DNA of 64,000 bases from Leptogorgia sarmentosa (lineage: Eukaryota). The stretch is taken from positions 8,618,001 through 8,682,000 of the forward strand of contig OZ210885.1 of NCBI GenBank assembly GCA_964658305.1. Reading direction: 5' to 3'. The position numbers and the translations under genes are program-made. Under the pieces are notes generated by a model. That model did no database searches. It was not told the origin of the DNA and was given only the letters and a program-made list of their open reading frames with translations. Of the stretch, positions 17,620 through 63,630 are shown one piece after another (positions within the stretch are counted from its first letter, which is position 1; every line of letters begins with the position of its first letter).

Positions 17620-20256
17620 TTAACCATGCGCAAAGTCAGCACCGAGCTCGTCTTTTGTACCGACAGTGCACGTGATGCGAGTTATAACAGGAAAATGATT
17701 ATCTCATACGAACATATGATTGAAACTTTAACACTTTCTATCATATCAGCAACTTTCCAATAAAGAATATCGAATGGTTTTCCGTACAGGATTGCGTCAT
17801 CAATGCACGTGGGATGTGGCGACTTTCGGAAAGCGTAAAAAATCACGGGCCGCAGGCGAGTCACTTTCCGAAACTCAAGCCACATCCCAAATGTATGAAT
17901 AACGCTATCCTGCACGGAAAAATCATTTGGTAATTGTTTTATAAAATAACTACAGTGAAACAACGGATAACGTTAATTTCTTTTCCATAAATACGAAAAC
18001 CCTTGTTTGTTGTTTTCGATAGCAATTTGTGTTACTCTCAAATTTTCGTATTTTACTTTAATTTATTGGCGACATTTTAAAAATCCCGTGACTCGTGAGC
18101 ATTATGCTCGTGAGTAAGCATTCAGAATTTTCCAAGCAGGATACTGTGCAGGATTGTCTGATCCTGCAGCACTATTGACCAATCAAATTGTGTGTTTCAC
18201 TGTAGTTATTATGTAACAGCCTTTCACGGCCGAAAACAATTTACTCGATAAGCGTGGTGACGTTATAACGTGCTCAATAATAGCAGAACTGAGTCATTAG
18301 ACATTCGAAATATTTTCTTGTCAACAGAGATAACTTTTCTCATATGAAGAGTCCCTTAGTCTGCAAACAAACTTATAAGGATCGATGGTCCAATGTTCTA
18401 TCTGTAAGACACTGCTGAAATGAAAAGATTTTAGAAAATATGACTAAGAGATAATGACGTCTGAAGTTCAGGAAGCTTTGCTGATAATGCTGTAAATGTG
18501 ACGACCATTGCAAACATCATTGGTAATTTTACTTTTATTGACAAATATTCTATAATAATTCGATATTGTAAACCAGCAAATACAACTAAAAATCTACACT
18601 AAAGTTGAAACAAAATAATTTTCAAATCTACAGTTGCCTCTTATATTAACAATGAAAGCGAATTGCTAAACATTTGCAGATACAATTTTCACTGTTTAAT
18701 TTATTCAGTGACAGTGACACACAGCTAATTCCTGCGGGAGCGAGAGATCGAAGTGAGACGGAAAATTTTAGTGGCAAACTATTTTGACTATCTTATACGT
18801 TTACTATACCGTCATTGAGAATTAAGAGAAAATTCTTAGCGTGACGTTTTCTCGATAAATATTTACTGCATGGACTGAGTAAGAATGTTTGTAGTAAGAC
18901 AGGTGAATTCAAAACACGCAGAGTGCCACTAAAATATTTTCCCTTCCACCAATTATGAAAGTTATACAGCAATATAATACTTAATGTAAGCGATCTTTGA
19001 TTCGTACACCTAAATGACCTCATCAAAGAGGTAGAGTTAAGGTTCTGAAATGGAAGTTTCCGGCGATCTCGAGGTATTAAATGTTCACAATTTTCTGATT
19101 TATCGCAAACCATGGTGACGCCTTGTGAGAAGTTGGGTGCTTACAAATAATCTGAAAACGTTCCTATACCTTTTCTCATGGAGTACTTGTAGGAACGTAC
19201 TTGTAAGAAGGATGCAGAAACGTTTTCAACTCCAAAAAAATCAAAACCCACACCCTCGGTTTGGGAATGTATTGTCGTTCTTGTATTCTACACATTGTGC
19301 CTATTACGTAGTAATAATAACGTTTAATATTCATTTCAGACGATGTTGCAATTCCTCTTAAGTCTTCAACCTTTCGTTTGGAGTTGTTTTGAATGCGAGG
19401 ATAACTTATTAAGACGAAGGAAGCAGAGCCGACCTCCTTCCAGGCCAACACAAACCATTCCATTTGAGCCACATGCAATGGCGCGAACATCCCGATCGAA
19501 ATGAAACTCTTCAACACACTCTCCATTTGGTAGGTTCCACAGTTTCAGCGTATTGTCATAATCCGAGCATGACAACAGTGATTCACTTCCAGGCGCTAAT
19601 GCCAACGCTCTGATCCAGCCAGCATTTTTCATTGGAAATCTATAGAGAACCTTTCCAGTAATGAAGTCCTCAATCACCAAAGAACCATGACCTAAAAGTG
19701 TGGTTTAAAATTTTTAAATATGTTAAAGCAATGTTACACGAGGCAATTTTTGCGATCAAGTTTGGATTGATTGCCATGTTTTATAAATTGGTTGTTGCGA
19801 ACGAAAGATTTTGATCGCATTGCATACACAATGTTCTTCTTTCCCAAGGCAATTTTTGGTATATTAAATTGGATGTACAACCATTTTATCGAAGCGCATT
19901 TTCACTCGAATAATTTTTTGGCATCACTTGAGCCGATTTTGGATTGTTTGCCGTGTTATCTAACAGCTACGTTATACAGAATAATTATTTTGCCAATATT
20001 TGTGACGCAATTTTGGCTTCATAATGATTTATGTTGCAGGTATGTTACCCAAAGGAATTTGTCGCAACTGGCAATTAAATTTCAAGTAATGAGCTGCCTC
20101 TTCAACAGTCGCTTTTATGCTTTCATTAGAAATTAGTAATAGGTGCAGGCGTAAATTTAGGGATGCGCATCTTGACACCTTGGTAGTCTTGACACCTCAA
20201 CTTTCCCGCAAGTGTCAAAACTGCCCGCGCATATCTCACTTGGAGCCCGCACAAAT
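17620..20256. repeat. Right arm of inverted segmental duplication (probably extends further right, with its partner outside the window)
   Basis: For example TAACCATGCGCAAAGTCAGCACCGAGCTCG at 17621 is the reverse complement of 3435-3464. Confidence 0.93.
19366..19691 (-). CDS. Terminal WD40 exon
   Basis: Acceptor CTTTTAG|GTCATGG; LLSCSDYDNTLKLWNL...VCVGLEGGRLCFLRL; TGA stop. Confidence 0.9.
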
Positions 20257-41200: not shown

Positions 41201-44200
41201 TGTTCCTGGCATCAAACACAAAAAGAATTAGTGAACATGGTCCAATCACACGATACTATGCCGTTTGTAAATTTCATAAACCCACCCTCTACCATAGCTA
41301 CATTGTTGTCAAATTGTATGCATTGTAAAGGGCATCCATACCAGTGGTACTGTTGGTAAAACTTGGTTACAGATCGCGAAAGTTACATCCGTGAAGCAAG
41401 GGCCATGTATGGCAGTTGGGCTTCGTTCAAAATAATGAAAATATACTTTGTTTTCAAATGTAGTCGATTATGTACAACAGGTTACAGGTACGAGTTCAGA
41501 TAAAATGGTTGAAATGTACGAAGGATTAACAATGAGCTCTCTTTCTCTCCAACCCGTTTCCGAAAGTTGAAATACAAATTTTTAATTCTTTTTTTTCCAC
41601 TGAGTATATACCGCACGAAATAAAGACAAACACCATTGAAATCCTAGTAAAATGATCTTTCGAACGGTGGGTCGCATGTTAGTTAAACACAACACAAAAA
41701 AAAATAAAGATTGATCGTCGGAAACGTAAGGCATTAGCATCTATCTGAGAAAAACAGAGTCCAATATGTTGAAATCCATGTCCTTATTTCTCACTGAAGC
41801 AGCATATTCATGAAACCTGTTTTATGTTCGTGTTATTTGCACATATAAAAACATTTTTACAAGCTTTTCTGTAATTGTCTGTAATTGTCGGAAATTTCCG
41901 CACGCGCACGGCATTTACTAAAACAGGATAAATCAGGTTGCGCAATAGTCTGAAACATGTGGAAAACATGCCTTTGATTACGTAGGGTGCGTTATTCGTA
42001 TGTTTTTCAGTCTTGGATAAACTCACTTCTGGTTTATTCGCACACGACATAAAAAACACGACAGGTGTCCCAGGAATTTCGCCCTCCCCCCAGCCAATTA
42101 TAGTCATAGGGCGAATTCGACCTAAATTAATATGGTGTTGGAGAGAAAGAGTACTTTTCGTAAGTAGTACATTTCTTTCTAAAATGTATTAACGATTATG
42201 CTGCACGAATCTGACTAAATGCTTCTGAATTTCACATATTCGCTACGAAGCACAAGTTGAATACATACAGTGAATATTTAACTCACTGTGATGACTGCGT
42301 CGCTATTTAGAGTGTACTCCCACTCAAATATGGAACGTTACGTGAAACCCAAGAACTGAAGCGATATGCATCAATCCGCTTCATAAACGTTCTTGTATTA
42401 AAATGTGAAGCCAATTTTTTTAGTAAATAGCGATGTACACAGTGGGGTAACTACTAGGGGCCCAACCTGGCCGGGGGCCCTGGGAAGAGGTTACTTCAGG
42501 GCCGTGGTTAATGTGAAATTCAAATAATTTTTATTGAAACTGAAGATGCAAAAAAGTTCGAAGTTAACAAAATGTTTGATATCATTGAGTAGCTGAAACA
42601 ATTTTGTTGCCTTTTAAAATGTGCTTGGATGTTGACAGTATATTAATTGTTGTATATTACAGTCGAACGTTTACTGTTGTCATTGTTCCTGCTTTATAGG
42701 AGATTATTTTAGTGTGCTTCTTTTTACGGATGTTTTTTGATGCAGTAGAGATGTTAAATAGCTATAATATGTTCTGTAAGAAATAGCAGAATTCAAATGC
42801 AAATAATATGCAGAATTCAGGAGAATATTTCGTAGAGTTAGCATTATGATAGTAAAAATGTGAAGCTAAGAGGTATAATAAAGAGGCCATCCACAACAGT
42901 TCAACCGAGTGCCGACACTGAAGATTTACGCCATTGAATTTGCAACGTAAAACAAACATTTTGTGAGTCAAGTATTTTCATTTCAAGAAAAAATAATTAT
43001 TTTAATTTAATAACAGATATTCCAACATTGAATTTGGTACCGGCGGGGTAACATATTTCCGAAAGTACATGACCATTTGCGGAGTTATTTGACAAACATA
43101 GTATGAAAAGGATTTAATTTTTTCTCTAATGGCATCGTTGCTGGCGTTCCTTCAGAAACAAAATCGTATCTCTTATCGAAACTCGCGCACTTTAACACTG
43201 ACTTTTAAGCAGATGGAAGTCGAGAAAACGTTTATGCAGATTTTCTTTTACCGATTCTGAACAACATTTTAATGTCCTTGTTTGGCTTGTGTTTAAGATG
43301 CTTACCGTCTTTTGTTCCAATAAACACTCGCTGATCATCTGCACTGAAATCCAGGGCATTAACTTCACTCTGCCCTTGGAACACAAAAAGCTGTTCATAA
43401 TTATCCATTCTCCAAAGGATTGTACTTTCGTCCCCCGACCCCGACGCTAGTATTGTTCCACTTTGTGACACAGCCAAACAGGTAACAACGGTAGAATGTC
43501 CCAGTAGTTGTTGAACTTCTCTACCTGTTTATAAAATAAGATAGCACGTACATAAAAGGGGGTAATAGGTAATTTTCACTCACATCGTTACTACATTGGC
43601 AGTATTTTTCAAAACATTGCGGCGATAAAATAAATGATTGAGATAAGTAACTACAGTAACTAACCCATCAGCTACACTCTGTTTACACCGCTAACTTCCA
43701 TTTATACTATTACGTCCCTATAGCAACTTAAACAGCAATGTAAGCGATAGACAAACACCGAAACGATCTTCAATACTAAAAACAAAATAACTGTAATTTT
43801 GCGGAATTTACTGTGGCGTGTTTTACAGGCGTGTGTTTTCATTCGTTACTTCTTGGGATTTCATAAAAGTATGCCCTCATCTTTGTTGTGCAAGTCCATA
43901 GATATAGGTATCGAGCCAACTTGAACGCTTGGGTAAGACTCGCTACCGGTCCCTGTTGCCTCGATAACTAAAGTGGTAGAGTAACGGTCAATGCCGAACA
44001 GTTTACTGAAACTTATAATATATTTACTAGTGTTTAAAATTTAGTGGCTGATGTTGGTGGTAGAAGAGAAAGTAGATAATTGGAAAGCATGCATGAAGCT
44101 ATAAACAGGAAATATTCTATACAGCGAATACCAATGATTGCACAGGAATGTTTTCCTACTTGTATTTGTAATTACTGAACTTTCACATTTAAAACTTTCA

Positions 44201-47200
44201 CTTTTTAAAAATGGCAGATATCATTTATGCACACGATTTCTTAATAATTGTATGTTTTATTGTTTAGAAGAAATAATATGTCACTCTGTCCGAATTGATT
44301 TTTATACTTTGATTAATATGTTGCAGACAAAAGCATTCCCTCCAGCCATTTGTGAGATTTTTAAATTTTTTACCCAGTAATCATTGATCCAGAAATGACT
44401 GAATTAATTTTTATCCCAGCGTAAATCTGGATGAACATGTCTCTTCAAGTTTCCAATCCAAATTTCAAATATCATAATATGACGACGACTACCGTACATG
44501 ATTGGCTAATTTTCTAATGAATTATCAATTACTTCACTTTAACCTTTGTTCCCTCACACATAACAACTGCATATTAACTATATTCTCTTTCAATGAATAA
44601 CCAAGATCAAAGCTTTTGTTTAGCTAAAAAGGCATGTATGAAGATGTTTAAAATAGAGTCATAGTATATACGCTACAATTCAATTTGTCAGCTTCCAAAA
44701 CTGAAACTTTTCTCAAAAACCGGGGCAGTGGGCTACAGGCACTGAGATATAATATTACTGGAGAGAGTGCACTCGACTTTTTCCATACAAAGGGGTGAAG
44801 CCAAAAACATGACGGATTTTCCGTTGCTGACGCCACTGGTTCTTATTTCTCATATAATTTCCACTGACCAACAGCGGTCTCATGTTTCCGACCGACGATT
44901 TTCCCTCTTTGTTTTTGTAAAAAAAAGCCGAAATTTTGTTTTTAGCTATATTGAAAAAATCAAGACATAAAGGCCGAACTTTTGCAAGGCTGAAAAGGTT
45001 TCACAATCCTTATAAGAAAGCAGAGTTATTTGAACCAGAAAGGTAAATGTAATCCTTTTTTATGCAAAAAATTGAATAAAATATTTTCTAAAACGACTAC
45101 CTTTCAAGTTTCAAATGGGAATTTCGAGGTCTGAATATCTGTGTCGCTTCATTTTTAACTAACTAGAATAGATGTCGCTACTTCTTCAGTCGTCTTGAAG
45201 GTATCAAGAGGATATGATATATCAAATGATATCAGAATGTCAAAAAAGGAAGAAAACCGAAATATCCTTTGCAAAAACCAAAATATTTTCGCCAAAACAA
45301 ATCCTTAGTGGGCTCAAAGTTAGTTGTGGTCAGTGGTGCTCCAATGAATCCACGCCATAATTTTGGCTTCACTTTTTGATGCCGTGCACTCTCTCCAGTA
45401 TTTCTTTAGCTCAGTGGCTACAGGTCTAAAAAATTTGGATAATTATCCGTGTAACGAAATGAGATTTGGATGGCGTAATATTATTAATACTTACTTATTT
45501 GCGCGAAATATGACGTGTGTATACAGTGGTTTATTTTACACTGCACCATTGATTTAGCTGAACCCGTGTAACTGTTTCTTGAAAAAATTCCAACATCTAT
45601 TTCAAGCATAAAAAGGTCAGCACTCATTTTCGAGCTGAAATTTAGACCACGTCGTCGAGTTTGTGGCGTTGTAGATTTTAAGGTCCCTACTATTAATTAT
45701 TGGACGACGTCGCACGAAATACCGCGAGTTATCGTTGGCGAGCGGATCAATTATTTGCCGATTCCGAAAAGAGAAGCACGTAATTAATCTGAGAACAACC
45801 GATATATAACTGAAGCAAAGCATAGCCACATTAACTAGGGTGATACGAAGCATAATGGGACGAGCCCTGAGGCCAGTGAGCTCCATGAGATTATATATAG
45901 CGCCGTAAATTTCCGATGTAACATGTACTTTAATAAACTTTTTATCTACTTAGTTCATTATCAGCGCTAACGAAAACAATTGAAGCTGAAGGCTAGTACA
46001 ACGTTTCTTGACAAGTGGGGATTTTGCACTGCAAAGTTTTGTTAATTAATAACGTCACCCGACTGGCTTTGCGAAATTGAGAGCGATTTCAAATTTGCTC
46101 AGTTTTTTTATACACGTATATCGCGCAGCCGCTCAACTTGCATAACTCAGAACTGATGATTCTTTCAAATGTGAGTGAGGATATGGTTGCACATGTAATT
46201 ACAATTACAAGAAGAGGCGCATTGAATCTGTGTTTTATCCCTTTTCCGGACCGACGATCGGTCAAAAAACTATTGAAAACCCCAAACCTTGCCATTAGTT
46301 TTATCCACAGTACGTTACCACACGGTTACCTACCTGTGTCAAGATCAAAGATTGTGATTGAACCATTCTCTAAACCACAAATTACAAGAGTAGCGGATGG
46401 AGTATTGGACGTCGCTAATGAGTATACCCTTGAAGCAAACGTTTTTCGAAAGATCTCAGGGCCTCCAAGATCTAAACATGAGAATTCCGGTATAAGACGG
46501 CATGTCTCCGTGCATGTTGCACGGAGTTGCTCTAATAGCGTCTTTATCCCCGGATACTCTTCATAAGATAGCAGTCTGCCTGGAAAACAAAAATACACAA
46601 CAGTATTACTGCACGTATATAACAAATTCAGAAAATTTAAAATAGCATTTAAAGATGAAGACAATTTCTGACCGGGAAAAAATAAAAACTGAACAACTAA
46701 CGGGGCTATCTGATTGTACTAGCTATATATATCTGTTTCTTGATTATTAATATAATAGGTTCTTAAAATTCATCATATGAGTTCTTTTCTAATTTCTAAA
46801 GGAAGTTTTTGATTGTTTTAACAAAATGTTCGTTCCCGTTCAGTGAATTTCATATGAAGGGGACATAAAGTAATATCAAAGTTTGAAAGTGAGACATTGA
46901 AAAAACGTTTTTGAAAGGTTTGCAATTGCATGTTAAAATGATGTTGTATTCTGTTTTATATTGTGGCAGTAAAAAGATAAGTAATTTATTTTATGATAAC
47001 GGAACGAGTATTTATGAATTGATTTATTTCCGCATATGTTACACTGACAAGGGTTAATTCTGCTATATACCAGCAGTTGTCATGCTTAGTTCCTAGTTAC
47101 AATTTTGTCATCAGAACCAACGATTAACAGAGTATAGTATGGACTATTGCTAACTTGATTAAGTTAGCAATAGTCCATAAATATCGACTTCAGCTCTGGG

Positions 47201-50200
47201 AAGAATAATCCTTCTTAGGTCGTGTCTTCAATTGTCAAACTCGTTTTGAGACAATCATTCTTTGCATGAAACTTTGTATAGGCTTCAGAAATTGCCACAT
47301 GTTAGTATTTGCAGGTTTTTGAATCACATTTTTGTGGTATCTTGTAGAGAGAAAATTGTACCAACATGATGATCTTTGAATGAAATTAAGCTTTTTATTC
47401 TACGCCTTTTGTCTTATAAATGTGCTCATTAAATAAACCGACTTTTTCATGGGAATGTCTAGACGGTTCACGATCACATTTTCTAGCATGTCGCAAATGT
47501 TTTATACATCATGAGCACTTTTGTTGATAAAGGTTAACCTTTTATATTCGTATTAAAATCATTGTTACTTAGCTGTAAACTAGCATCGGATGTTGTTTTT
47601 GAATACTTGTGATTGACCTTTGATGCATTTTCAAGGTCATCTGAACTTTTGATTCATACAAGTAAGCGTCTCATAAGCGTAATTGTTTCATATATAGCAT
47701 AGTTTCTCGATTACACAAGGCTCGCTGGCAAGGGAGGCGCGTGGTGATAACACGTTGGCTATCTCCTCGCCGTTTAATTTCCTCGATTACATAAGGCTCG
47801 CTGGCAAGTGAAGGGAGTGGTGATAACACATTGGCTATCTCCTCGACGTTTTCCTCGATTACATAAGGCTCGCTGGCAAGGGAAGCGAGTGGCGATAACA
47901 CGTTGGCTATCTCCTCGCCTTTTACTTTTAAAACCAGCTCACTGACGAGTCAAGAGGTTTTCAGAAATGTCGTAAGGTTTGCACTTCATTTTCTTCGATC
48001 GTATACTAACAACTCTGTGTGTTGGCACGAACTCATATGACGTTGTGCGACAGCCACATTGATACGATCGATCAGCCAGCTAATTATTTTCAATACACGC
48101 AGCGTGTTGTGCACGTGTTATGGTTTTATAATGATCTTTGGCAACTTACTCAACTGAGTGTACTTCCATATTTAGTGAGCCATGCAATCACTTTGAATTA
48201 CCCAAAGCATGCTTTACACGTGCTATACGAGGTACTGCGTCATGCGTAGACGCACATAATGTGACGATTTTACATTTGCTGTAATTACAGCGTTTACATT
48301 TTGTGGCCTTGTGGTAGTCAAACATTGTTAACCACTTCACTGATTGACGGCCCCACTCTAAGCGTTCGCCATATGTTGTGTAGAAATTTTAATGCCCGAA
48401 TGAATGCTGAGTTTGCAATTTTTGCAAAAATTGCAATTCCGGAGGGGCTTTCCGGCATTGTGTACTCTAACTTGTGGGCTTCTTCACCTATAGCTTACTT
48501 TTCTATTCATTAGAGTAACTGCAAACCATGATGATCAACGATTTATAGCTACAATTGCATAATTTTTGTAAGGATATCAGTCAATTGTGGAGTTTGTACA
48601 TGGGAAGATTTTGGAAAGCACCCCCCATGCCCCCTCCCCCATCGAGTTTACACTATGAATGAATGACTGATGTGAATTTTCCCCACTCATCAAAATAATG
48701 CCAAATTTCTTCGAAACTTTGCACAAAATAGTGAGGCAACTTAAACAAATCATAGAAGAATGAGACAAATTAAAGTTCATTATTTGAATTACCTAGGAGT
48801 TGAGGACAGATAGAATCTGGGTTTTCGTTGATGACATCGGCAGAGAACATTAACGAGGATTTGAGAAGTTGGATTTCCTCCGATTCTGTGTCCACAAAAC
48901 GAAAATCTGATATTACTGAGAATACGCTGACGTGTTTCGCTTTTTGTTTGAGCCAGTGTAGATCAAACAGCAACTGGAGTAGTTCACCATGTCGTCCCGA
49001 AGAATAAATGTGATAGGGTAGGTACTTGAAATAATAGTCTTTTTGGCAGGTAGTTGAATTATCATTCCAGTCACCATCCACGCACAGGCCACGAAGTGTC
49101 TTTACGAACTTATCCTGAACATCATTTAGTGTACCCATGTCTTGAAGTTTTGTCTGCGCAAAATCCAAAAGCAAGTCATGGACACGATAGCTTTTCTTTC
49201 CGTGGAGTTCAGGCCCTGAAATTGATCGAAATGTTAGGAAATTTGTACTAGAGGCGGACAATTTTTGAAATCTCAAAATCGCCGTTGAGTAGTATAGAAG
49301 GAGTTGTGCTATCAGGTTTTCGTAAATACGAAATGGCTTAGTCACAATAAGAATAATTATTGGCTATATCGAGCCAAGAATAATGCAATATCTGTAAAAA
49401 GACACATAGACTTAAGGTAGTCTTGGTAAAACTCCTAACTTCCTAAAAAGCAAACAATATTTTTTAATTTACATGATTCGCCTTATTATTACAAAACATC
49501 AAAAAATCCACTTGATCCACTTTGCAACCTGTATTACTGGTTCACTGACTGTTGTAAATTTTCGTGACTAATGACAATACTGCAAAGTGAACTTGGCACT
49601 GAAGATAAAAAATTTTCGGAGGATGTGCAGATCAAAACCGTTAAAAGATAAAACTGTACCTTTTAAGATCAGCGACTTTCTCTCGAGCACAGCAAGTATA
49701 TCTTTGTGTTTCTGAGGTTTGCGCGAAGTGTTTCCATTCTGGTTCTGTATCGAACACCACAGCAGCTCGAGTACATCTGACGGTATATCTGTATCCTCTG
49801 GAAATATAGCCAAATAAAGAAACATCTCGCGTACACTTTCGTCTAGGCGTTGGTAGCTCACATCAATGACTGCTAAGAGGTTATCATAAGGATAATCGAC
49901 TTTGGGAAATAATGAACGAATTCTCTCCAGGTCAGCATTTTTAAGATCATCTAAAACATCCTCCCAGTCTTGTTCCGCACGAGTGTCCGTTAAATTTGAA
50001 CCCACCAGTGACAGAGCCAGCGGTAAACCTCGACACTGCTCTAACAGGTCTGCAATAATTCGCCGTAAGTTTGGCGTTAACTGTTCGTCTGGACTTATCC
50101 CAGCGCTCTGATACAACAGCCCTCGGGATTTATCTTGTGGCATAATAACAAGTTCGTACTTAGTAATTCCCGAACCGCAAAGAACAGTAGCATCTCTAGT

Positions 50201-53200
50201 TGTTATTAATAATTGGCATTTGCCAGATAAGCAATTGAATACAGCAGCGTCGTCCACCTTCCAAACATCATCAACAACAACCAAACAATCTTTATCCATC
50301 TAAAAATGAGTTGAAAACTAGCTCAGAAATCGTATCTGTTAACTGCATTCAATAAAATTTACAACTCTTACTGGCCAAGGACTTCAAAGGCTCGCTTGCA
50401 ATTTTTTAGTGGCATTTTCTGGCCTTTCTGATATATGAGGCACATGTTCATAGGTGGATTTATGACGAATGTTCTGATTTTATTATTTCTGACTTCCGCA
50501 ACTGGTTTACTCTTTCACCTCTATCAAAGCGGAAATAATAAAAATCGTACTAGAAATAGCTGCAAAAATTGCAGTGTAAAAGAGTCCGAACTGCCAATGC
50601 ATGATATGAATGAAGTTTTTTAAAGAACTGAGAAAGTAGAGGTAATATTTATTATTTATAGACCCGGAGGCAATATGAAGCAAATATTTCGACCATTAGT
50701 CAAGCCACATCAGTCGTATGCAAGTATATATTGTTTTCGTTTCACAAGAATGTACGAGTTAAGAATTGTGCTTTGTTTACAAATAGTTACACGAGCTGGC
50801 AGTACAACGCACGAGAAATTTTCAATACTGAACGAGGCGAAGCCGAGTTAAAATGCTAACTTTGTTTTAAAAATTAAAGACAATTAATAAAGCTTACCGC
50901 CCTGTGCATGTGGTCGTGTCAAAGAAAAGACTTGGGAGAATTGCAACTATTATAGCTTTAACGTCCATCTAACATCAGACTTCTACATTTAACGTCGCTT
51001 TAATTTACGTTTACCAACGCTGTACCGGATATATTTTTCTGTATTCGTGCAAGTTGGCTATTCGAGCTTAGTGGCGTCCCCAGAGCCGATAAGTGGGGTG
51101 GACATATTCATAAATTCGTGTTGGCAGACCATAAAAACAATCGATTTCAAAAGAAATTAATTGTGCAAAACACGAATATATGAATATGTCCACCTCACTT
51201 ATCGAGCTGGGGACGCCACTGTTCGAGCTACATGCCATTAAAAATCGTCCCTACCTTGAAAATAGCGCTATCACATTTTATCACAAACATTAAATATAGC
51301 ACACCATACATACCGTGTATTTTCTTAACCAAGATTGCGCTGCAACAATATCACTGAACGACACATCTCCACCAAGGACTCTGACGAGGGTGTTAATCAG
51401 TTTCAAGCGATCAGGTGTTTGACCAATGTCAAGCCAGACAACTTGACGAGATTTTGAGACATCCCAGGCAACAGCTTGGGCTAACACCGTCTTACCGAGG
51501 CCTCCCATTCCACGGATACCAACGTCGCCACCATGACGTCCAACAACACCCACTTTGTTTCCCTGCTTGAGTAACTCCAATATCTCGGTTACTTCCGATG
51601 GCCGTTCTACCATGTGAGGAGGTAGATTGCGTAATCCATACGGAACTAGAATATCGAATAAAAAATATAGATGATAATTTTGAAATCACTCTGCTGCACG
51701 CTTCAAATAATTGTGTATACCAGAATGCATATTTGCCTAATTTCACCTTTGAACATTAATTTCGTTAAATATTAATTTTACGTCGCTCAGGCAGTAAAAT
51801 CTCTTGCTACATGTGGTTACTGAAGTGAGTCTAAACTTTATTCAAAATTTCCCAAGAAAAGCTATTTATAGTGTGCATTACAATTATTGATGAGAAGTTT
51901 GTGGCTGTTCCTGTTCGGAAGTTTATGCGTGCGCGCGCAGATGGTGCTAATTGGTACAGTGTTTCCTCACCACCTGTACTGCAGGGTGAGAGAACTTGGA
52001 GTACGGTATGATTTTGAAGTGCTGTCCACTGGGTGCAGTGGTGATATACAGATATGTAATATCAAACTACCATTCCTAATCATCGAGGTCATTCGTGAAT
52101 ACTATATCGAAATTGCATTCGAAACCATGCTAATATGTGGCTATACAAATAAGAATTAGACATTCTAGGGTATGATTCGGCTTCTGGACAGCCTACGTTT
52201 CATTGTATATATCGCGCAACGTCCATTTCAGTTGAAGCTTTCAAATCATGCTATAGAATATAGCTATAAACATCATTTACAGCATGGATTTTTAGAAAGT
52301 AGTGCAAACGAATAGTGACATCTCGGCAATCAGAGCCTCTAAAGTCACAGAAGTGGCAACCAGCAAGCTGACCAGTCTCTTCATACAAGTTACATAACTT
52401 TGCCGACAGAACACTTTTCCCAACGCCGGGACCTCCATTTAGGATCATAACTCTCGATTTCGTATCGTGAAGCCGTTTTTCAAAGTCGTCAAAGAACCAT
52501 TGTCTGGTCCCTTCTTGAAATTTTCGAATCAGCTGGTCAATCTTTCCATTAAATACAAATTTAGTTAATTTTTCAGAAGATTTTTCTACCACAGTTCGCA
52601 ACTTGACAACTTGACTTTCAACATTGGCTATATTGAATCTCCTATTAACGAAGCATTTTAGGACTTAAATCAAAAGAAGAAGCATTTAACTACTATGAGC
52701 AACATTTAAGCATTCTTGTCGCAATTGAGCGGCGTCAACTTTTCACGAGCGTTTTTTATTTGGTTGTGGCCTACGCAGTTAACCCGGCCAACATTAAAAT
52801 TCATTTTTAGTGATGATGAGTGCGACAGCGCGTACTGCACTGCCAATGCTTTCGGATTCCCACTAAATCTGGGAAGTGTTAGAAGACATATTGTATTCCT
52901 GTTGCCGTTTACTCTAACGAGATATTTTCCTACAAGAAATTCTTAGAAACAGAACGTTGAAGACCGGGAAGGTTCGATCGTAGGGGACAAATTTTGAAAA
53001 TTGAATGGCTGCCTGATACTCTGTAAATTTCCCTGCATAATATATTCTGCATAAATAGTTTCCCATCTTTCCTAGTTAATTGAAACACTACCTTTTTTCT
53101 CTGCAAAATCTGAATGCTCCGTCCACGGCTTTTTCTGACGACATTCGATTTCATCTGTTTTCTCCGCCAGACGTTTAAGCTCCATTGAGTTCTCAGCTGC

Positions 53201-56200
53201 AGACCTTTCAACCTCTTTAATTTTGCGAAGCAGTGTGGATTGTATGTTATCGAGTTTCTCCATCACTGGATTTATCTGAATAGATAAAATTGATTTAGTA
53301 ATATTCAATTTACGGGCTGAAACAAATTTGAAATCACTCTCAACTTCACAAAGCGGCTTAAGGTGTGTGATGTGATAATAGTTATAATCTGACATTATTA
53401 GTATAGGCAATTGTATGGTTTCGAGTGCAATTTGGAAAAATAGGTTCGCAAAGCGCACATGTATCTGCGAATGGTGAAGCAGAACTGACGGATGAGTCGT
53501 CGGAAAGCGCAATGCTAAAAAGTCCAGGTTGCGCTTAAAACTATCGCTGAAGTATTGGTTTAATTGCAAGCAATAAATGAACCTAAACTAAAGCTAACCC
53601 TAAATATGAAACTAATCGAACCCCAAAGTTAACGCACAAAACATTAAAACCTAGAACTATACTCAAACAGATTTCCTAAATCAGCATGCTGTCTTATTAA
53701 ATATGCGATGTTTAGTCAGTGTTGACTGTTCTCATATACAGCATTTCTCACCTTCCTCCTTCGACTCTTTCGTGAAAAATACGAGGAAATTCCTTGGGAA
53801 AAAACTTTCTTTGTGCCTCCAATATGTATAAAACTATGGCTTTATACTGAATATCGTGAGATTGCCTAATATTACATGTAAATGTCATTAAATTATTTAA
53901 TTATATCGTTTTGGCCTTATTTCAATTTTGACCGCCATCTTGAATATGATTAGATTTAACCTGCGAACAGGAACAACAAAATGTATCCAGTTTTTATATA
54001 GCGTGCTGTGACAAAACCGTTCATGAGTGGGTCATCTGTATAGTGCTCTGTATGCATTTTCAATTTACAAATCGAAAGGCCGATAAAACAGCGCGCTGCC
54101 GTTTCAAATGCTTCGTTAAATTACAACTGGACATTGACAGGGACCTGCAAAGTCAAGATTGTTTGCTTAAACCGTCGTACTTAAACACTGCACTTCACAT
54201 TTTCGCAAAAATCCCATCGAAACATCGCCTTCACTCCTCGAAGGCCGCCATCTTGCATTACGTAATTATAAGCAAAAGCTCGTCGCTGATTGGCTAGAAG
54301 CTAACAGCTAACAGCTAACAGCTAACAGGGTCATAGCATAGTATCTGCGTTCGCAGATACAAAAAACATGCACGAGTGAGTTTTTCAAAGACAAAAAAAA
54401 CTCACGAGTGTATGTTTTTCCAAATAGCATGAGAATTTAAGTAGATTTTACTTGTCTCGCTTTGTTCGGCCGCTAATATACGGAGATGTTTTGCTTGTCC
54501 ACCGAGCACTTGCTTGAACGAAGAGAAATCTCCGTCTCGTATTATAAAAAGGTTGTCATCATCGACTGCTGTTAATATCACTTTTAAGTGTCTGGTTCAC
54601 ATTCATCGCCGTTTCTTTTTCAATTCACAGTTTTCGTTCAGCATAAAAACAATCGATCAAAATATACAATCTAACACCTCTTGCGGAATATTTTGTACTC
54701 GCGCTGTATTTTCTTTTCAATGCGCCACTTTATCCGCACAATCAACCACAAGACTAGATATCTTTGGCGGTATTTTCATTTTTCGAACTATTTGTAAGCC
54801 CCTCTATCATTTGTCTTTTGCTAAAAGAATCTACCCAAAGAGGCAGCCATTATTTCATCCTCGAATAATTTCATATTTTTTATTGTTCGCCAGAAATGGC
54901 TTAATCTTATTGGCTAGCTTTATAATCTCAGCCAATCAGAAGGCATAAACATCTGAAGAAATTTGCACTGAATTTCTTTTTTTGGCACTGAATTTCCTTG
55001 TTTGGTACTGTATTTCCTTAAAATTGCACTTCTTTCAACCAATCGGAATCGAGAATTTTTTTAAAGTATATTATTAGATTAGAGATTAAGATGAGTATGT
55101 AAATTAATGAGAGAATATATATGAGCTGAGGACAGAGTTCGTTGTGCTGTGGACGACCTGACAAGTAAAGAGGGCAGGGTCACAAGGATTCGAGAAGAAT
55201 TAGTTGGAATTGAAAGCGTGTATCGAAGTGACTGAAAACAATCTTAGGCGAGAAGAGTAAAGTAAAATTGTTAGTTCCTGAATGAAAAAAAGGTGACGAA
55301 GCGTAACTAGTGTGGGGTGAACTAAGCTCCAACACTGAAAAGAATCAACTACGGTCTGATCTCCTGAAGTTTAAAGACAGTCGTTCTATACTTGGGAGTG
55401 CTCTAGTCGATAAACGATGGAGTTATATCCACCTCTCGCCCAGCAAAGGTTGGAAACCGAAGCCAGTCGCTTAGGCAGTTAATTCCGAAATTAAATAGAA
55501 TTACTGAAGGAGAACTTGAGGGCAATTACTGAGCAAGTCAGGAATCCTCGGGACAGAAACTACGCATTGTGGCTAGCTGAAGAGAGAAGACGGAAACTCT
55601 GTGGACTTGGTTTGTTTGAACTGCGACGCACGCCCGTGTGCTTACCATCTGAGCTTTATCAATATTTTCCTGACTTTAATGGTTGGGATTTTAGGGAAAG
55701 GGAAAATTGCTTCGCCGATCTTTTACGGGCTACCCCCATGCGTACCTATTTTTTCCTCTCTTATAAATTGGCCCTTTTTTCTCAAAATTTTCGAATTGCC
55801 ATCGAATAATTTTTACGTCACTGTGAGGACGAAATATTCCAATGTTTGGTCGACACAGATGTAAAGTCGAATATGAGCTAAAATTTTTGTGACGACATTA
55901 TACATAAGGTCTATTGAAATTTGATATGCAAGCTTCCTAGTTTGTAAACTTTTCAGAAATTTGTAGTTCAACGTTGGAACCTCAATAGCAATTTTGCAAG
56001 CAAAATAATTGTTATCTATCAAAATTTAGGTTTATCTTGCCTATGAGAATGGCTAAATTGTTTTGCTTAATGGGGTGTCCCAGCCCCTTGGGCTAGTTTT
56101 TTTCCCCCTAAAACAGTATTTTATTTATCAGTAATTGATATGTAGTGTGTTTTATTTATCAGTACACGCTTCGTTCTAAGTATTCTATTGCAAACGTGTC

Positions 56201-58116
56201 GCCAAAAAGTATGCACATGTTTGACTTGCAACGTTTAACGGGTAAAGCAAAACTCATAAAAACAGCATTATCGAAAAAAAGCACAGATTGCGTTCCCACG
56301 CTGAAAACTTGCACTCGCTCGCATTTGAAACATGTCTTATATTAATTTGAACAGCGTTTTCCTACTTATTCAACGACTGTTAAATGAAACATCAAAAGTT
56401 CCTCAAACCTTTGTGGCGTCCAAATCGTAGTTTTTGATACAACCGCAAAGTTCAGCTACACTTTCTGCAATTAGTTTTGCGTGACGACCATCAACAAGAA
56501 TGTCTGGAAATAATGAAGAAAATTTATCTTGAGTATCACAAACACTATAAATATACCGCTGCTAATGCGCGTAGCACGAAGGATACATGGAAAAGCATGC
56601 CCTGCTGTCCATACAAACTATTTGATAAGCATGGTCTGCCGTCGTTATTAGCAAACTTCAATATGCGGCCAGTGTAGTAGATAGGGGATAACAACATCAG
56701 CAAGCAGCACATGTCATACCCACTACCTAAACAATGCAAATAGGTTGGACGTTTTGAGTAAAGTAGATTTTTTGCATGATAGACATGCAAAAATTTCGAA
56801 ATCGTACAATCCAGAGCAACAGCGTTAAAGAGTATCACAAAGTTAGTAAAACTGTAAAGTCTGGTTGAGAAATGTTTTAAAATGCGAAAAATATGACCCT
56901 GTAAAGTTTTCAAATTTTGTATATTTTAGTATTACCCATGCATTTATATCCTTATCGAGAAAAGTCTATCAATTTTGCGTGTCTAATACTAAAATGAAAA
57001 AATTGGCAAAATTGCGTTAAACATTCCCGACTTTTGAATGATTGAAGTTTTGAACACAAATGTCCAACTGGAATTAGTACGATTTACGAAGTCTAATTCA
57101 TGTGAAAATTTTGATTTTATGCATATGTCAGCATATATTAGTTGTACTATACTGTATATCATGTTGTATACAGTATTAAAGGCATTTAACTTCTGCACTT
57201 ATATGAAGGTCTAAAAATAAATCACTGTCACCAATTCAACACTAGATTTCTATGTAAAGTTTCAAAGTATAGCTACACTATTGGAGAATTTAATTTTTTT
57301 TACCTGTTCGACCCCATATAATTTCAACGATTGATCGTATTGAGAATCGCATTGAATTGTATATATGGTAATATATGAATAAAATTGGATGATAAAAATA
57401 ATAATAAATGAATAATAAGAGAAATTCTTTCAACACATGGGGGTTTTCTTACCGGAGATAAAAAATGATCTGCGCAAAACATATTTAAAGGCATGATGAA
57501 ATTCCGGCAATAATGCTAATAATACAGTACCTGTTTTATTCCAGAAATCTAGTTCATCACAAATTATTTTTTCGTCAGCTATTGGTAAATTTAATATTTT
57601 GACCAAAGATTCCATTCCTTGAAACGAGGCATTGAACATATGTACTGTCCATTCAGAGATGTTACAATGAGCCCATGGGTTTCTGATGTCCGACCGAACT
57701 TTGTTTGCTTCAGCTGCAGCACCAGATGATACAAAAGGGTCTGCCTTGCCGATAATAGTCAAAAGTGCTGACATATCCATGGTTTTATCAAATCCAGTGA
57801 AATGTGCCATAAAGTCCGTGACGAATAGTTTCGCCAAAGAGACAGGATCTTTAACAGCATAATCATAAGCTGATTTAGTACGCTTGTGGATAATGTTATT
57901 GTTAATGTTCTGATATTGTAGGTTATGTGTGGAAGGGGGTAATTTCTTCCTTCTGTATGCTGCGAAATCTTGCTTTTGAATTTCATCAGGTGGTTGGCAT
58001 AAAGAATGATACCATTTCCCAAGTTCAGTGGCGACAACTTTCCTCAATGCAGGTGCAAGAACTTTGGTAAAGGCAATGCCAACTAAAACCCAATGTTGTT
58101 CTTCCTCTGATATCAT
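19366..58116 (-). CDS. Multi-exon APAF-1-like STAND protein: HEPN-like N-terminal domain + coiled coil + NB-ARC + helical domain + WD40 repeats (~1711 aa model)
   Basis: Hand-spliced exons, all GT-AG and phase-compatible: 58116-57531, 53792-53752 (tentative), 53275-53092, 51645-51314, 50299-49660, 49215-48793, 46579-46334, 43524-43306, 40848-40639, 37504-37261, 35878-35646, 32650-32547, 29409-29007, 27571-26967, 25669-25586 (tentative), 21665-21410, 19691-19366. Sum 5136 nt, open frame. NB-ARC motifs GMGGLGKT, LVVVDDVW, LLITTRD, CRGLPLAL, VHDLL; multiple GH...WD-type repeats. Confidence 0.8.
21410..21665 (-). CDS. Penultimate exon (divergent beta-propeller)
   Basis: Acceptor TTTTGACAG (phase 0), donor ATAG|GTAATT (phase 1, matching the last exon); lies within ORF 21279..21656. 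Confidence 0.75.
22886..23656. mobile_element. Foldback MITE with ~330-bp TIRs (Tc1/mariner-like ends)
   Basis: TA|CAGGGTGTATCAAAAAAAAGTTTACTCGCG ... CGCGAGTAAACTTTTTTTTGATACACCCTG|TA; arms nearly identical. Confidence 0.92.
25159..25535. mobile_element. pogo/Tigger-like MITE remnant (second partial copy at ~26429-26560)
   Basis: CAGTAGAATC..GCTATCTCGAACTC end and repeated TTCGAGATA motifs at the opposite end. Confidence 0.55.
25586..25669 (-). CDS. Candidate 84-nt phase 0-0 exon
   Basis: Acceptor ATTCCAG, consensus donor AAG|GTAAGA, open frame AQKFRYTWLMFYITDKPITGDRARKTPK; could be skipped without a frameshift. Confidence 0.45.
25880..26380. mobile_element. TIR element with ~85-bp inverted repeats and an internal tRNA-like segment
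   Basis: 25880-25965 is the reverse complement of ~26295-26380; internal AACCCT-like repeats and an A/B-box-like segment at ~26148-26213 (minus strand). Confidence 0.8.
26796..26947. repeat. Intronic ~84-bp tandem duplication
   Basis: Two copies of GAAATTTGAA.TGCAGCTCAAC...AAAAATAACGTTTGACAATCT.GTT. Confidence 0.75.
26967..27571 (-). CDS. WD40 exon
   Basis: GHPDDSVVTAIDITSNGKFALSGSSSGTL...FPAHKDAIS...FASGSIGGSVKLWNV; acceptor CATGCAG, donor CAG|GTATGT. Confidence 0.9.
27788..28010. mobile_element. PIF/Harbinger-like MITE
   Basis: TIRs GGCCGTTTTCCATTACAGTCGTTTTGCCCGC and GCGGGCAAAGCGACTGCAATGGAAAACTGCC. Confidence 0.7.
29007..29409 (-). CDS. WD40 exon
   Basis: VWNLSDG...VRFSSDGLHVIIGCKDNHVFIWDW; acceptor TTTTTTAAG, donor GCAG|GTGGGT. 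Confidence 0.85.
31655..31805. ncRNA. Inverted pair of degenerate minimal hammerhead-like motifs
   Basis: Plus strand CTGACGA-GGGCCCTTTCGCTG-GAAACGTC (31728-31756); minus strand CCAGCGAAGGGCCTTTGCTCGAAACGTA (~31675-31702). Confidence 0.45.
32547..32650 (-). CDS. Short WD40 exon (absent from the ORF track)
   Basis: (G)DLEWAKHVAVSADDRYVVSLSKDARNGSTKSSIK joins VWNL of the next exon; acceptor CAATAG, donor AAG|GTATGG. Confidence 0.8.
34001..34144. repeat. ~144-bp hairpin centred on GGCTTCGCC (non-autonomous TE family)
   Basis: CACTTATTGACTGGGCC...GGCTTCGCC...GGCCCAGTCAATAAGTG; a related hairpin GGGCTTCGCCC lies at ~39671. Confidence 0.85.
34620..35130. mobile_element. Old MITE with ~110-bp degenerate TIRs
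   Basis: GTATCAAATATTTCGTATCTCTACACT / AGTGTAGAGATATGGAATATTTGATAC and AATAAACAAATTACTTC / GAAGTAATTTGTTTATT. Confidence 0.7.
35646..35878 (-). CDS. WD40 exon
   Basis: VLTASWDGSIRVWNL...DHSNDVTDI...EDGTFKVWNL; acceptor TTTCAG (phase 2), donor ACAG|GTATAG. Confidence 0.9.
37261..37504 (-). CDS. WD40 exon
   Basis: LVSGSGDGTIKIWDL...IISGDEEGSVRLW...YEGHT; an alternative in-frame acceptor exists at 37534; donor CAG|GTGGGT (phase 2). Confidence 0.9.
39347..39498. repeat. ~62-bp inverted repeat (back-to-back ends of a repeat family)
   Basis: GCGAGTAG.GTAGCCAATCAAATTGCAGCATTTGCAATAGTATACGAGTATGATTCTACTA and its reverse complement ~28 bp away. Confidence 0.85.
39940..40281. mobile_element. hAT-type MITE (same TIR family as 9075-9445)
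   Basis: TIR CATAGGCGTACG; perfect 8-bp TSD ACAACCAG. Confidence 0.9.
40639..40848 (-). CDS. WD40 exon
   Basis: Phase-1 acceptor GTTGTAG completes GTKD-G-LKVYCVSTG; continues TIKLWKADT...LVGHTDWVECV; donor ACAG|GTATGT. Confidence 0.8.
43306..43524 (-). CDS. WD40 exon
   Basis: LLGHSTVVTCLAVSQSGTILASGSGDESTILW; donor GACG|GTAAGC. Confidence 0.9.
46334..46579 (-). CDS. Helical-to-WD40 linker exon
   Basis: (G)RLL...LIPEFSCLD...ICGLENGSITIFDLDTG; acceptor TTTTCCAG, donor ACAG|GTAGGT. Confidence 0.85.
47706..47917. repeat. 72-76-bp tandem repeat x3
   Basis: CTCGATTACAYAAGGCTCGCTGGCAAG...GATAACACRTTGGCTATCTCCTCG starting at 47706, 47782 and 47854. Confidence 0.9.
48793..49215 (-). CDS. Winged-helix MHD motif and APAF-1-like helical domain exon
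   Basis: YRVHDLLLDF...YYFKYLPYHI...LLFDLHWLKQK...PQLLG; acceptor TTTCAG, donor CTAG|GTAATT. Confidence 0.9.
49660..50299 (-). CDS. NB-ARC exon 2 (Walker B, RNBS-B, GLPL, RNBS-D)
   Basis: LVVVDDVW, LLITTRD, CRGLPLALSLVG, FLYLAIFPED; acceptor TTTTTAG|ATG, donor AAAG|GTACAG. Confidence 0.93.
51069..51221. mobile_element. 153-bp hAT-type MITE
   Basis: TIRs (T/C)AGTGGCGTCCCCAG; perfect 8-bp TSD TTCGAGCT. Confidence 0.9.
51314..51645 (-). CDS. NB-ARC exon 1 (P-loop)
   Basis: VPYGLRNLPPHMVERPSEV...VGIRGMGGLGKTVLA...VVWLDIGQ; acceptor TTCTAG (phase 1), donor ACG|GTATGT. Confidence 0.92.
52320..52641 (-). pseudogene. Truncated NACHT (NPHP3/nSTAND-type) N-terminal fragment with Walker A only
   Basis: FQEGTRQWFF...VMILNGGPGVGKSVLSAKLC...HFCDFR; family-like sequence ends after CRD, the frame stops at 52251, there is no Walker B and no convincing donor. 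Confidence 0.7.
53092..53275 (-). CDS. Coiled-coil linker exon
   Basis: INPVMEKLDNIQSTLLRKIKEVERSAAENSMELKRLAEKTDEIE has heptad-like character; acceptor TCTATTCAG, donor AAAG|GTAGTG (phase 1). Confidence 0.65.
53752..53792 (-). CDS. Candidate 41-nt linker exon (phase 1 to 0), or the end of an alternative 5' UTR exon
   Basis: Strong donor AAG|GTGAGA at 53752; acceptor TTTTTTCCCAAG at 53793; open frame (G)ISSYFSRKSRRRK; exactly bridges the phase-1 HEPN donor and the phase-0 acceptor at 53275. Confidence 0.4.
53932..53942 (-). promoter_or_regulatory. YY1-like AAGATGGCGG motif (second copy at 54245-54255); possible internal promoter
   Basis: CAAGATGGCGG on the minus strand ~180 bp upstream of the 53752 donor. 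The motif is also common in TEs. Confidence 0.3.
54300..54328. repeat. (GCTAACA)4 microsatellite
   Basis: Direct reading. Confidence 0.85.
57531..58116 (-). CDS. Exon encoding a HEPN-like (CXorf38/DUF4559/Swt1-like) helical domain with RxxxxH motif
   Basis: ORF 57430..58116 reads ...LAKLFV...DMSALLTII...IRNPWAHCN; donor ACAG|GTACTG at 57531 (phase 1); an acceptor AG lies 7 nt upstream of the ATG. Family assignment is from recalled motif similarity, not a search. Confidence 0.75.
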
Positions 58117-59469
58117 TATCGTTCTATGAAGTAAACATAAAATAATGGTGTTACAATTTTAGCTACGAAAGCACAAAGCTTTTGTAAACAGTACAGACAT
58201 AATTACTTTCTGACATTTTAAGTGTTTTACAAAAATGTGAAAGTAGAAGTTTCTTTGAAAATAATTGTATGGAATCATCTGGTAACAAACTTCAACACGT
58301 GGCCAGTAGCTATATAGGTACCGCTACCGAATAACAACATCAACTAAAGTTCTGCCCACTAGCTGAACAAATGCAATAAGAATAAGTGCTTCAAGCAAAG
58401 TCCAATAGTAAAAAATTAGTGTGTGTTAAAATGCCCGAGGGCCGTTGCACAAAACATCGAATCCTAGTTTATCCTGTAGGTAATTAGTAGAACTTTTGCT
58501 GTTTGTTGACATAATGTAGTATCCACTGCCTTTGACAATTATATGTAATTATTCAGTAATTTGTAGATAAGACGTGGGGTGAGTATATGAGACTCGAGTG
58601 CATCGAGGTCTCATATAAATTGAAACATTTTGCTGCTATAACGATAAATCAAATAATTATTCGGCAGCAAAAGGTATTCTGGCCCCTTTCTTATGGAATA
58701 TTAGGGGGCGGCTTTAACGTTTCAGAGAGGCCAACAATTTTCTTTCCCGTTGCACTGCAAAAATTGGGGGGATCAACAGGCCACTGGCCCCCTCTCTCGC
58801 CGGGCGAAATGATACGTTAACAGGGCGTTAGAAAATGGTTTTATTTGGGTGGGAACCGCAGCTCACGAGACGTCATACACCGCCACTAGGATTGGCGCTG
58901 AGCCTGAACGAGAAAATTTTAGAAATTTGGAATCTCTTGATGGTCGGAAATGGCATCTCCGCTGTCTTCCATATACCTCCCCCCCCCCCCGCCCTTTGGC
59001 GCCACCACTGGTAAAGCTACAAGGCAGTATCCAACATTATTATTTCACTCAACCAAAATTTTTGTCATGCGCATCTCTCCTTTTAAAGCCGTAACATATT
59101 ATCTTACTTCCTACTTTGCTATCGCAATTTATCTATATGAGTAACCCAGTTTTGAACAATCAGATAAGCCAGATTTATTCAATTTGTAAGACGAATGGAA
59201 AGTATTGACCACTCAACGCTGTCTCCAAATATTCGTTGCCTCGCAGTGTGTTCCGTATTTCGAGCATATTATGGATAGTTGTAAACTGACAACGATTAAA
59301 TATATCTATGTCGTTAATTGTGTCATTCAAGCCGTGCCATATTAATGTAATAAGCGCTTAAAAGTCACTTAGATCATAGACAATCGTCTATGTTCAGACT
59401 TAAGTAAAACATTGTTCTTTTTACATATCCTGTCCATCCTGAAATATGCATATACATAGCCTACTTATA

Positions 59470-63519: not shown

Positions 63520-63630
63520 TAATCCTGAAGATGACTAAATGAAGTCGAAACGTTGAATCAAAATGCTTATACGTTATTCGGAGTTACCATTGTAGTGTAT
63601 TTCATGAAAATACTCAGTGGTTCGCGTAAT
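63520..63630 (+). mobile_element. Second, inverted copy of the PLE terminal repeat with hammerhead-like core
   Basis: CTGAAGATGACTAAATGAAGTCGAAACGTTGAATCAAAATGCTTA...; reverse complement of ~59470-59576. Confidence 0.75.

Follow-up and report, generated by a model that had tools for sequence, protein, structure and literature searches.

A HEPN-like domain spliced onto an Apaf-1-like NB-ARC/WD40 chassis in the octocoral Leptogorgia sarmentosa

In the octocoral Leptogorgia sarmentosa, a gene joins an N-terminal HEPN-like domain, by way of a helical linker, to an Apaf-1-like chassis consisting of an NB-ARC switch, an APAF-1 helical domain and WD40 propellers. The gene lies on the minus strand of a 64,000-nucleotide stretch of contig OZ210885.1 (assembly GCA_964658305.1, positions 8,618,001 to 8,682,000 of the forward strand), called here the window, whose own numbering is used throughout. 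The fusion is real, is expressed in spliced form, and is common to at least three sequences. We hypothesize that the protein may be an Apaf-1-like NB-ARC/WD40 immune receptor working as a ligand-gated ribonuclease (RNase), a proposal by analogy with Apaf-1 to which we give about an even chance.

Gene model and exon chain

The gene model was built from a six-frame reading, Pfam matches and a tblastn comparison with the homologue P0001, with exon ends set at canonical splice sites. It runs through 16 minus-strand exons from an ATG at 58116 to a stop at 19366 (5,100 coding bases, 1,699 amino acids); 15 of 15 introns are GT-AG, internal stops are absent, and the window is animal DNA with a G+C content of 34-42%. 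A first-pass annotation, made from the letters alone, had described a spliceable frame of about 1711 residues between 58116 and 19366: the frame, its coordinates and the six motifs it named are all present on the same strand, but the length is 12 residues less, which alternative nearby splice sites could explain. The domain order is HEPN-like, helical linker, NB-ARC, APAF-1 helical domain and about 21 WD40 blades, with the motifs RNPWAH at residue 145, GMGGLGKT at 334, VVVDDVW at 406, ITTRD at 431, GLPLAL at 490 and VHD at 624. The features are as follows, "joint" denoting a splice joint in sequencing runs X4, X5 and X6, described below.

57531..58116, minus: exon 1 (coding part), HEPN-like domain, residues 1-195, with D114 and R145-N146-x3-H150; joint 57531/56503
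56409..56503, minus: exon 2, first part of the helical linker, residues 196-227; tblastn of P0001, joints on both sides
53092..53275, minus: exon 3, coiled-coil-like linker, residues 228-288, phase-1 end; joints, loose ends at 53188
52316..52628, minus: truncated intronic NACHT (NPHP3_N) frame, Pfam NPHP3_N E 4e-11; outside the main transcript
51314..51645, minus: exon 4, start of NB-ARC with Walker A GMGGLGKT, phase-1 acceptor; Pfam and joints
49660..50299, minus: exon 5, Walker B, sensor-1 (ITTRD), GLPLAL and winged helix; Pfam and joints, top PDB match Apaf-1 at E 1e-16
48793..49215, minus: exon 6, MHD-type motif (VHD) and APAF-1 helical domain; Pfam APAF1_C E 7.7e-11, joints
46334..46579, minus: exon 7, end of the helical domain and first WD40 blade; joint 48792/46578
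43306..43524, minus: exon 8, WD40; homology and splice-site fit
40639..40848, minus: exon 9, WD40; imprecise joint 43313/40849 in X4-X6
37261..37498, minus: exon 10, WD40; splice signals and homology
35646..35878, minus: exon 11, WD40; splice signals and homology
32547..32650, minus: exon 12, WD40; splice signals, 53% to P0139
29007..29409, minus: exon 13, WD40; splice signals, 53% to P0139
26967..27571, minus: exon 14, WD40; splice signals, 67% to P0139
21410..21665, minus: exon 15, divergent beta-rich stretch; splice signals, 40% to P0139
19366..19691, minus: exon 16, last WD40 blades and stop; splice signals, 57% to P0139

Two homologues carry the same HEPN-linker-NB-ARC architecture, each in one frame. 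P0139 (1,709 residues, on a 5,604-nucleotide ENA contig) aligns to all 16 exons at 37-74% identity, and P0001 (1,205 residues, on a 4,084-nucleotide ENA contig) is 58% identical to the window model over 1,203 columns; the short contigs carrying them are probably transcripts.

At the 5' end, an AG at 58125-58124, immediately ahead of the coding part of exon 1, suggests that an upstream exon exists. Contigs of X6 run past the exon start (58124) with 28 letters absent from the window, relatives extend only about 8-10 residues beyond the window's N-terminus, and no convincing candidate for a first exon was found in 58124-64000. A CARD or other domain 5' of the HEPN-like domain was considered and rejected, as P0001 and P0139 begin 8-12 residues before the conserved Trp.

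Splicing of the HEPN exon to the NB-ARC exons

Six sequencing runs contain the region, none of them recorded as RNA, and four were aligned over 40500-59500. X4, X5 and X6 show CT..AC joints at 57531/56503, 56409/53275, 53092/51645, 51314/50299, 49659/49214 and 48792/46578, with depths of 105-446 at the joints leading from the HEPN exon to the helical domain; a further 91 joints occur in the run alignment beyond those displayed. Their depth is enriched over exons, while X1 shows none of these joints and covers the introns, as DNA would. Because of the splice joints and the exon-enriched depth we infer that X4-X6 are RNA-like. No single contig of these runs reaches from HEPN to NB-ARC, and at some joints the shorter side is just 20-30 letters long. 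For exons 9-16 the joints were placed by splice signals and by the alignment with P0139.

The first-pass annotation had predicted that the HEPN exon is spliced to the NB-ARC exons by a connection from 57531 to 51645. The joints and the shared architecture of P0001 and P0139 bear this out, except that the connection passes through two small exons (56503-56409 and 53275-53092) that it did not name. That the HEPN and NB-ARC exons belong to two genes is rejected by the same joints. Splicing of the HEPN exon to the intronic NPHP3_N frame is likewise rejected: joint 53092/51645 skips the frame, whose depth (0-9, against 44-205 in the flanking exon bins) is at intron level.

Identity of the HEPN-like domain

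The N-terminal domain has at least 129 close HEPN homologues, many from large contigs. Alignment A1 holds 111 rows, namely the window and 110 of 120 listed short homologues (10 left out), in which D114 is invariant (111/111) and R145, N146 and H150 are kept in 110, 110 and 109 rows. The conservation of R and H that had been predicted for homologues is found, since RNx[WF]AH is kept in 131 of 135 of them, from octocorals through Mytilus; four Mytilus proteins, of which three are about 40% identical, likewise retain R-N-x3-H and the Asp. Compared with P0001, the HEPN exon is as conserved as the start of the NB-ARC domain (70% and 72%).

Among A1 rows, Pfam profiles at E<=0.05 match HEPN_Swt1 in 67 of 111 and DUF4559 in 36 of 111, and PF18738 (DZIP3-like HEPN) in none. 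The cut-off of PF15112 (DUF4559) is not reached, the top relatives scoring 24.6-26 bits against 27 and the window giving no match. In the ESM Atlas, the top clusters (0.97) have HEPN_DZIP3 or DUF4559 on 11% of their members. The AlphaFold model of the domain is confident and helical (mean predicted local distance difference test, pLDDT, 92.7) and places RNPWAH at the end of predicted helix 133-149, ahead of helix 158-174 (helix numbering is our own), and D114 at the start of predicted helix 115-124; there is no Ex3[KR] motif. In HEPN domains generally, the Rx4-6H motif (N, D or H after R) has been placed at the C-terminal end of helix 3 and ahead of helix 4 (PMC3710099). Among 48,161 chains compared by VIA-align, the C-terminal domain of Swt1 ranks second (Z 7.1, root-mean-square deviation 3.4, 118 of 136 residues aligned), and the HEPN proteins 7ae2, 2hsb, 5yep and 4rgp are in the top 50 at Z 5.3-5.6; when PDB sequences were searched with a profile of A1, no match had an E value below 0.2. 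For a Zn ribbon as in CXorf38 there is no Cys support in the insert, and the sole Cys conserved at >=90% is C151.

Taking the profile, language-model and fold evidence together, we regard the domain as very probably a HEPN of the Swt1/CXorf38 neighbourhood. RNase catalysis by the domain is plausible.

Linker, switch and WD40 sensor

Exons 2 and 3 encode a helical linker of about 93 residues that bridges the HEPN exon and the NB-ARC exon. From the RNxxxH motif to NB-ARC the distance is 145 residues in the window, 153 in P0139 and 194 in P0001, in which the linker is longer by heptad-like repeats (residues 255-325 of P0001); at 53188 the RNA-like contigs diverge from the window and continue in letters that, by eye, resemble this repeat. 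The label "coiled coil" rests on sub-threshold Pfam matches and composition; by a simple heptad score the linker does not stand out. The linker matches the HEPN-STAND-TPR-beta-helix-MYND family at E values down to 2e-12; none of the DED or Death proteins described below match it.

Within single exons, Pfam recovers NB-ARC (E 5e-18 and 2e-6) and APAF1_C (E 8e-11). The Walker A, Walker B, sensor-1, GLPL and MHD motifs are intact and shared with DED-bearing relatives, and the top non-repeat PDB sequence matches are Apaf-1. For the WD40 part we modelled the C-terminal 914 residues of P0139 (pLDDT 80.9, predicted template modelling score 0.55), which form 83 strands by our own count, or about 21 blades, in agreement with the many WD40 repeats of the first-pass annotation; a self-built WD40 profile finds 15 candidate blades, some of them weak. 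Apaf-1 itself has 15 WD40 blades. It ranks 2-3 by fold against the P0139 model and aligns over about 680 of its 914 columns, and because it covers only that part, the model makes a third propeller in the sensor probable.

Relatives and origin of the fusion

For the N-terminal domain and for NB-ARC alike, the top homologues with a named source are from Dendronephthya gigantea and Xenia. A search that used the NB-ARC and helical region of P0001 as query gave 261 matches, of which the best 120 were listed. The 15 best after P0001 are 40-66% identical, the named ones from Dendronephthya, Xenia and Nematostella; they are followed, among the matches listed, by NB-ARC-WD40 proteins of cyanobacteria and other bacteria and by two amphioxus proteins. 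These best 120 of 261 include no CARD-Apaf-1, so none is in the tree described below. As a separate observation, the cyanobacterial NB-ARC-WD40 proteins (P0151-P0178, about 30-34% identity) precede any listed CARD-Apaf-1, an order that the word-based search may bias.

Pfam finds no CARD in the 17 closest animal NB-ARC relatives examined, nor in the upstream exons of the window. Those 17 relatives carry DED, Death, TIR or HEPN, or have no N-terminal domain in the record:

P0138, P0140: DED, two stretches each
P0143 (Nematostella): DED
P0136, P0137 (Dendronephthya): DED, partial
P0141 (Xenia): two Death domains
P0179 (amphioxus): TIR
P0001, P0139: HEPN

The statement of the first-pass annotation that HEPN stands in place of the CARD therefore fails; since the closest relatives have DED, Death or TIR instead, the replaced module was likely a DED pair. 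Among the octocoral members similarity begins at P[YFH]GL, the start of exon 4 in the window, and the phase-1 acceptor of this exon is the point at which the N-terminal modules diverge across the clade.

A tree was built from 27 NB-ARC rows, without P0190, in which Walker A finds no match, and P0146, which is truncated at its N-terminus. In it the NB-ARCs of the three HEPN proteins group together (100/99), nested within nine rows (100/100) of which the others carry DED or Death; the Nematostella DED protein falls outside these nine. In a quick 54-row tree the HEPN of P0139 falls among TPR-MYND HEPNs, a hint of two captures. Two independent captures were considered, but a single origin is not rejected by the approximately unbiased test on 16 rows (p 0.30).

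The same HEPN family occurs on three different STAND chassis. Besides the Apaf-1-like one, it is found in P0002-P0012 and P0014, an expanded octocoral/Mytilus HEPN-linker-STAND-TPR-beta-helix-MYND family that keeps RNxWAH intact and whose HEPN Pfam does not recognise, and in P0013 on nSTAND3-ankyrin. The HEPN and linker exons probably came as a cassette, by exon shuffling, from the HEPN-STAND-TPR-MYND family, and probably replaced the DED pair on a CARD-less Apaf-1-like chassis within octocorals; movement of a three-exon cassette onto a DED-type chassis there is the simplest reading.

Surroundings of the locus

The intronic NPHP3_N frame at 52316-52628 (minus strand) is open, lies behind a phase-compatible AG and has low depth in X4; it may represent the remnant of another STAND gene or a piece captured from one. 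An inverted paralogous copy stands tail to tail with the gene, its 3' end within window positions 1-3465 (plus strand) and its last exon at 552..881 (plus strand). That exon is 88% identical to exon 16 in nucleotides (89/110 amino acids), and the DNA downstream of it is 94-96% identical to 17620-18950. Between the two copies, at 5123-8690, lie ten tRNA genes (Cys, Val, Asn, His, Leu, Gln, Ser, Glu x2, Gly). The stretch 59467-63633, which lies immediately upstream of the gene, holds broken reverse transcriptase and GIY-YIG frames (59672-60555, minus strand) between 110-bp inverted repeats and resembles a Penelope-like element; an 870-bp palindrome occupies 61325-62194.

Proposed mechanism and its rivals

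In Apaf-1 and STAND proteins, the WD40 propellers keep an ADP-bound monomer closed until a ligand opens it, after which ATP exchange leads to oligomerisation through NB-ARC. Drawing on this biology and on the intact motifs, we propose that the WD40 propellers would hold the ADP-bound monomer closed, that a microbial or damage ligand would open it, and that ATP exchange would allow the NB-ARC domains to oligomerise. Oligomerisation would gather the stalks, so that HEPN pairs could form a two-subunit active site and cut cellular or viral RNA, leading to a stop of translation or to the death of the infected cell without a caspase. The RNA-cutting step is proposed because HEPN RNases require dimers, catalysis by HEPN domains being described as dependent on dimerisation (bioRxiv 10.64898/2026.05.28.728550). 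As to history, the HEPN-plus-stalk exons would derive from the octocoral HEPN-STAND-TPR-beta-helix-MYND family and would have replaced the DED pair at the phase-1 intron before NB-ARC. In its fullest form the proposal is of a self-contained octocoral "RNase apoptosome", in which a HEPN-stalk cassette would have been swapped into a DED-recruiting receptor at one phase-1 intron, a ring with three propellers in its sensor would kill or silence a cell by RNA cleavage, and activation would be tuned by a stalk whose length varies; this version we hold tentatively, at somewhat short of an even chance.

Several observations weigh against the reading of a ligand-gated RNase. The window's own N-terminal domain has no Pfam family match and the three relatives scored in detail are below the curated cut-offs; the ESM Atlas recognition value of 2044 is under the 2300 mark; and the Z of 7.1 is below the VIA-align threshold for helical folds, the HEPN scores being tied with unrelated helical bundles (acyl-CoA dehydrogenase, 7.4). 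The HEPN fold expected by the first-pass annotation is backed by the rank of Swt1 and by weak Swt1 and DUF4559 profiles, but not by PF18738 or by Foldseek, which returned nothing for the model at E<=0.001. Among close relatives some 60 further positions reach at least 90% conservation, so the RNxxxH motif is not outstanding there, and the window departs from the consensus at K124 (E in 104/111), F16 and I153. X4-X6 are three samples from one study, with short contigs and RNA not on record, and loose ends at 48890, 49036 and 53188 reveal diverged copies among their contigs. CARD-less Apaf-1-like proteins have been hypothesised to be under relaxed constraint and may not oligomerise (PMC10959488), and in the literature we found no biochemical test of RNase activity for an animal HEPN-STAND or CXorf38-type protein.

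Among the alternatives, the HEPN domain could be an active RNase that is not switched by a ring, either because the stalk pre-pairs HEPN domains that the closed receptor masks, or because the protein acts as a sensor and its HEPN pairs in trans with HEPNs of the many other family members. The 95-145 residues of helical linker between HEPN and NB-ARC, with heptad-like repeats in P0001, fit such a stalk; the number of close homologues would supply partners in trans, and an autoinhibited state of CXorf38 has been proposed from modelling (bioRxiv 10.64898/2026.05.28.728550). We consider it unlikely, as all NB-ARC switch motifs are intact and shared with DED relatives, which is what a working oligomerisation switch would be expected to show. 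It is also conceivable, though quite unlikely, that the domain is a non-catalytic adaptor or RNA-binding module, a recruitment surface that took over from the DED pair and keeps its motif for binding or folding. All other N-terminal modules in the clade are protein-interaction domains (DED, Death, TIR; PMC2246300), and the closest solved fold, the Swt1 HEPN, has been called possibly inactive, its motif lost (PMC3710099); unlike Swt1, however, this family has kept R-N-x3-H and the invariant Asp from octocorals to Mytilus and on three STAND chassis.

Finally, the architecture could be real and the window copy nevertheless a drifting member of a fast-turnover family without a working effector. 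The three consensus departures in the HEPN exon, the broken NACHT fragment in intron 3 and the nearby inverted paralogue, whose last exon shows 21 non-synonymous against 7 synonymous codon differences, would agree with drift; the lack of any stop or frameshift over the 5,100 coding bases, the spliced, exon-enriched coverage in three samples and the identity to P0001 across 1,203 columns make it very unlikely.

Were the ligand-gated RNase reading true, an animal would possess an apoptosome-type protein with a direct enzymatic effector and no caspase, as in bacterial Avs, and it would show that single exon-shuffling events can exchange the effectors of animal NOD-like receptors. Among the immune genes of corals and bivalves, HEPN-STAND receptors belong to the most expanded, and this gene offers a clean test case for their predicted RNase output, because its chassis is close to the well-understood Apaf-1 and its sister proteins differ mainly at the N-terminus (DED or Death versus HEPN).

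Comparison with known systems

Like human and mouse Apaf-1 (PDB 1z6t, 3sfz, 5juy), the protein has NB-ARC, winged helix and APAF1_C followed by WD40 propellers; it differs in having HEPN and a helical stalk instead of a CARD, and a longer WD40 part, with about 21 blades in the P0139 model. Closer is the CARD-less Apaf-1-like group of Nematostella, octocorals and amphioxus, whose paralogues with DED, Death or TIR have been described (PMC2246300, PMC10959488). They share the NB-ARC-WD40 chassis (the 15 best matches are 42-66% identical to P0001 in the NB-ARC region) and, from Walker A to the end, measure 1,327-1,402 residues against 1,366 here, but carry DED, Death or TIR where the window's subclade carries a predicted enzyme. 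We assign the gene to this published subtree from the named relatives rather than from the sequences of that paper.

The coral and bivalve HEPN-STAND receptors (PMC10236652, PMC8260672, PMC9646362, PMC3710099) resemble the gene in having an N-terminal HEPN with Rx4H, a central STAND and C-terminal repeats, in lineage-specific expansion and in a proposed role in RNA-level defence. Known types are DZIP3-like HEPN-NACHT-WD40/LRR, HEPN-NB-ARC-TPR and DUF4559-NACHT-ankyrin, from which the window gene differs in HEPN subfamily (no A1 row matching PF18738) and in chassis. CXorf38- and DZIP3-type HEPN domains fused to NACHT, CARD or Death have been reported from cnidarians and other animals, and an RNase L-like role has been suggested for such fusions (PMC3710099). 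Eighty-three HEPN-NACHT proteins are recorded in D. gigantea (PMC8260672), many N-terminal DZIP3-like HEPN domains in stony corals (PMC10236652), and the same HEPN-STAND expansion in the pearl oyster (PMC9646362). The tables of PMC10236652 list HEPN-NB-ARC-TPR and many HEPN-NACHT-WD40 genes (90 of 180 WD40 rows covered), and in its five-coral table seven of seven rows with an APAF-1 helical domain are of CARD type or DUF4062-NACHT, with no HEPN.

The HEPN-STAND-TPR-beta-helix-MYND proteins (for example Dendronephthya LOC114528978) share the same HEPN at 40-63% identity and a homologous linker; their NTPase and sensor are different, and outside the window's HEPN exon they give no match at E<=1e-3. 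CXorf38/DUF4559 and Swt1-like HEPNs have in common with the window domain RN-x3-H, an Asp about 30 residues upstream and weak profile matches. The spacing from D to R is 31 in the window (D114/R145) and 28 in CXorf38 (D134/R162), and it is from this spacing that the two Asp residues are taken as equivalent; the His-Asp dyad of CXorf38 (D134, RNEIMH from 162) has been proposed from modelling only (bioRxiv 10.64898/2026.05.28.728550). In contrast to CXorf38, the window domain is below Pfam cut-offs and has no conserved Cys in the insert where CXorf38 has its Zn ribbon.

Our search of the literature, with most subscription journals outside its scope and 90 of 180 WD40 rows of the coral table within it, found no description of HEPN-NB-ARC-APAF1_C-WD40. 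The first-pass annotation knew of no characterised HEPN-NB-ARC-WD40 protein; the novelty stands for HEPN on an Apaf-1-like chassis but was overstated, HEPN-NACHT-WD40 and HEPN-NB-ARC-TPR having already been published in corals. Bacterial Avs and other STAND proteins with enzymatic effectors (PMC13581612) follow the same effector-STAND-sensor logic, as an analogy only, and our HEPN profile has no match in the bacterial NB-ARC relatives among the matches listed. HEPN on an Apaf-1-like chassis is a new combination within the known, abundant HEPN-STAND class and, because the general idea is already in print, what is gained is a new and traceable combination rather than a new principle.

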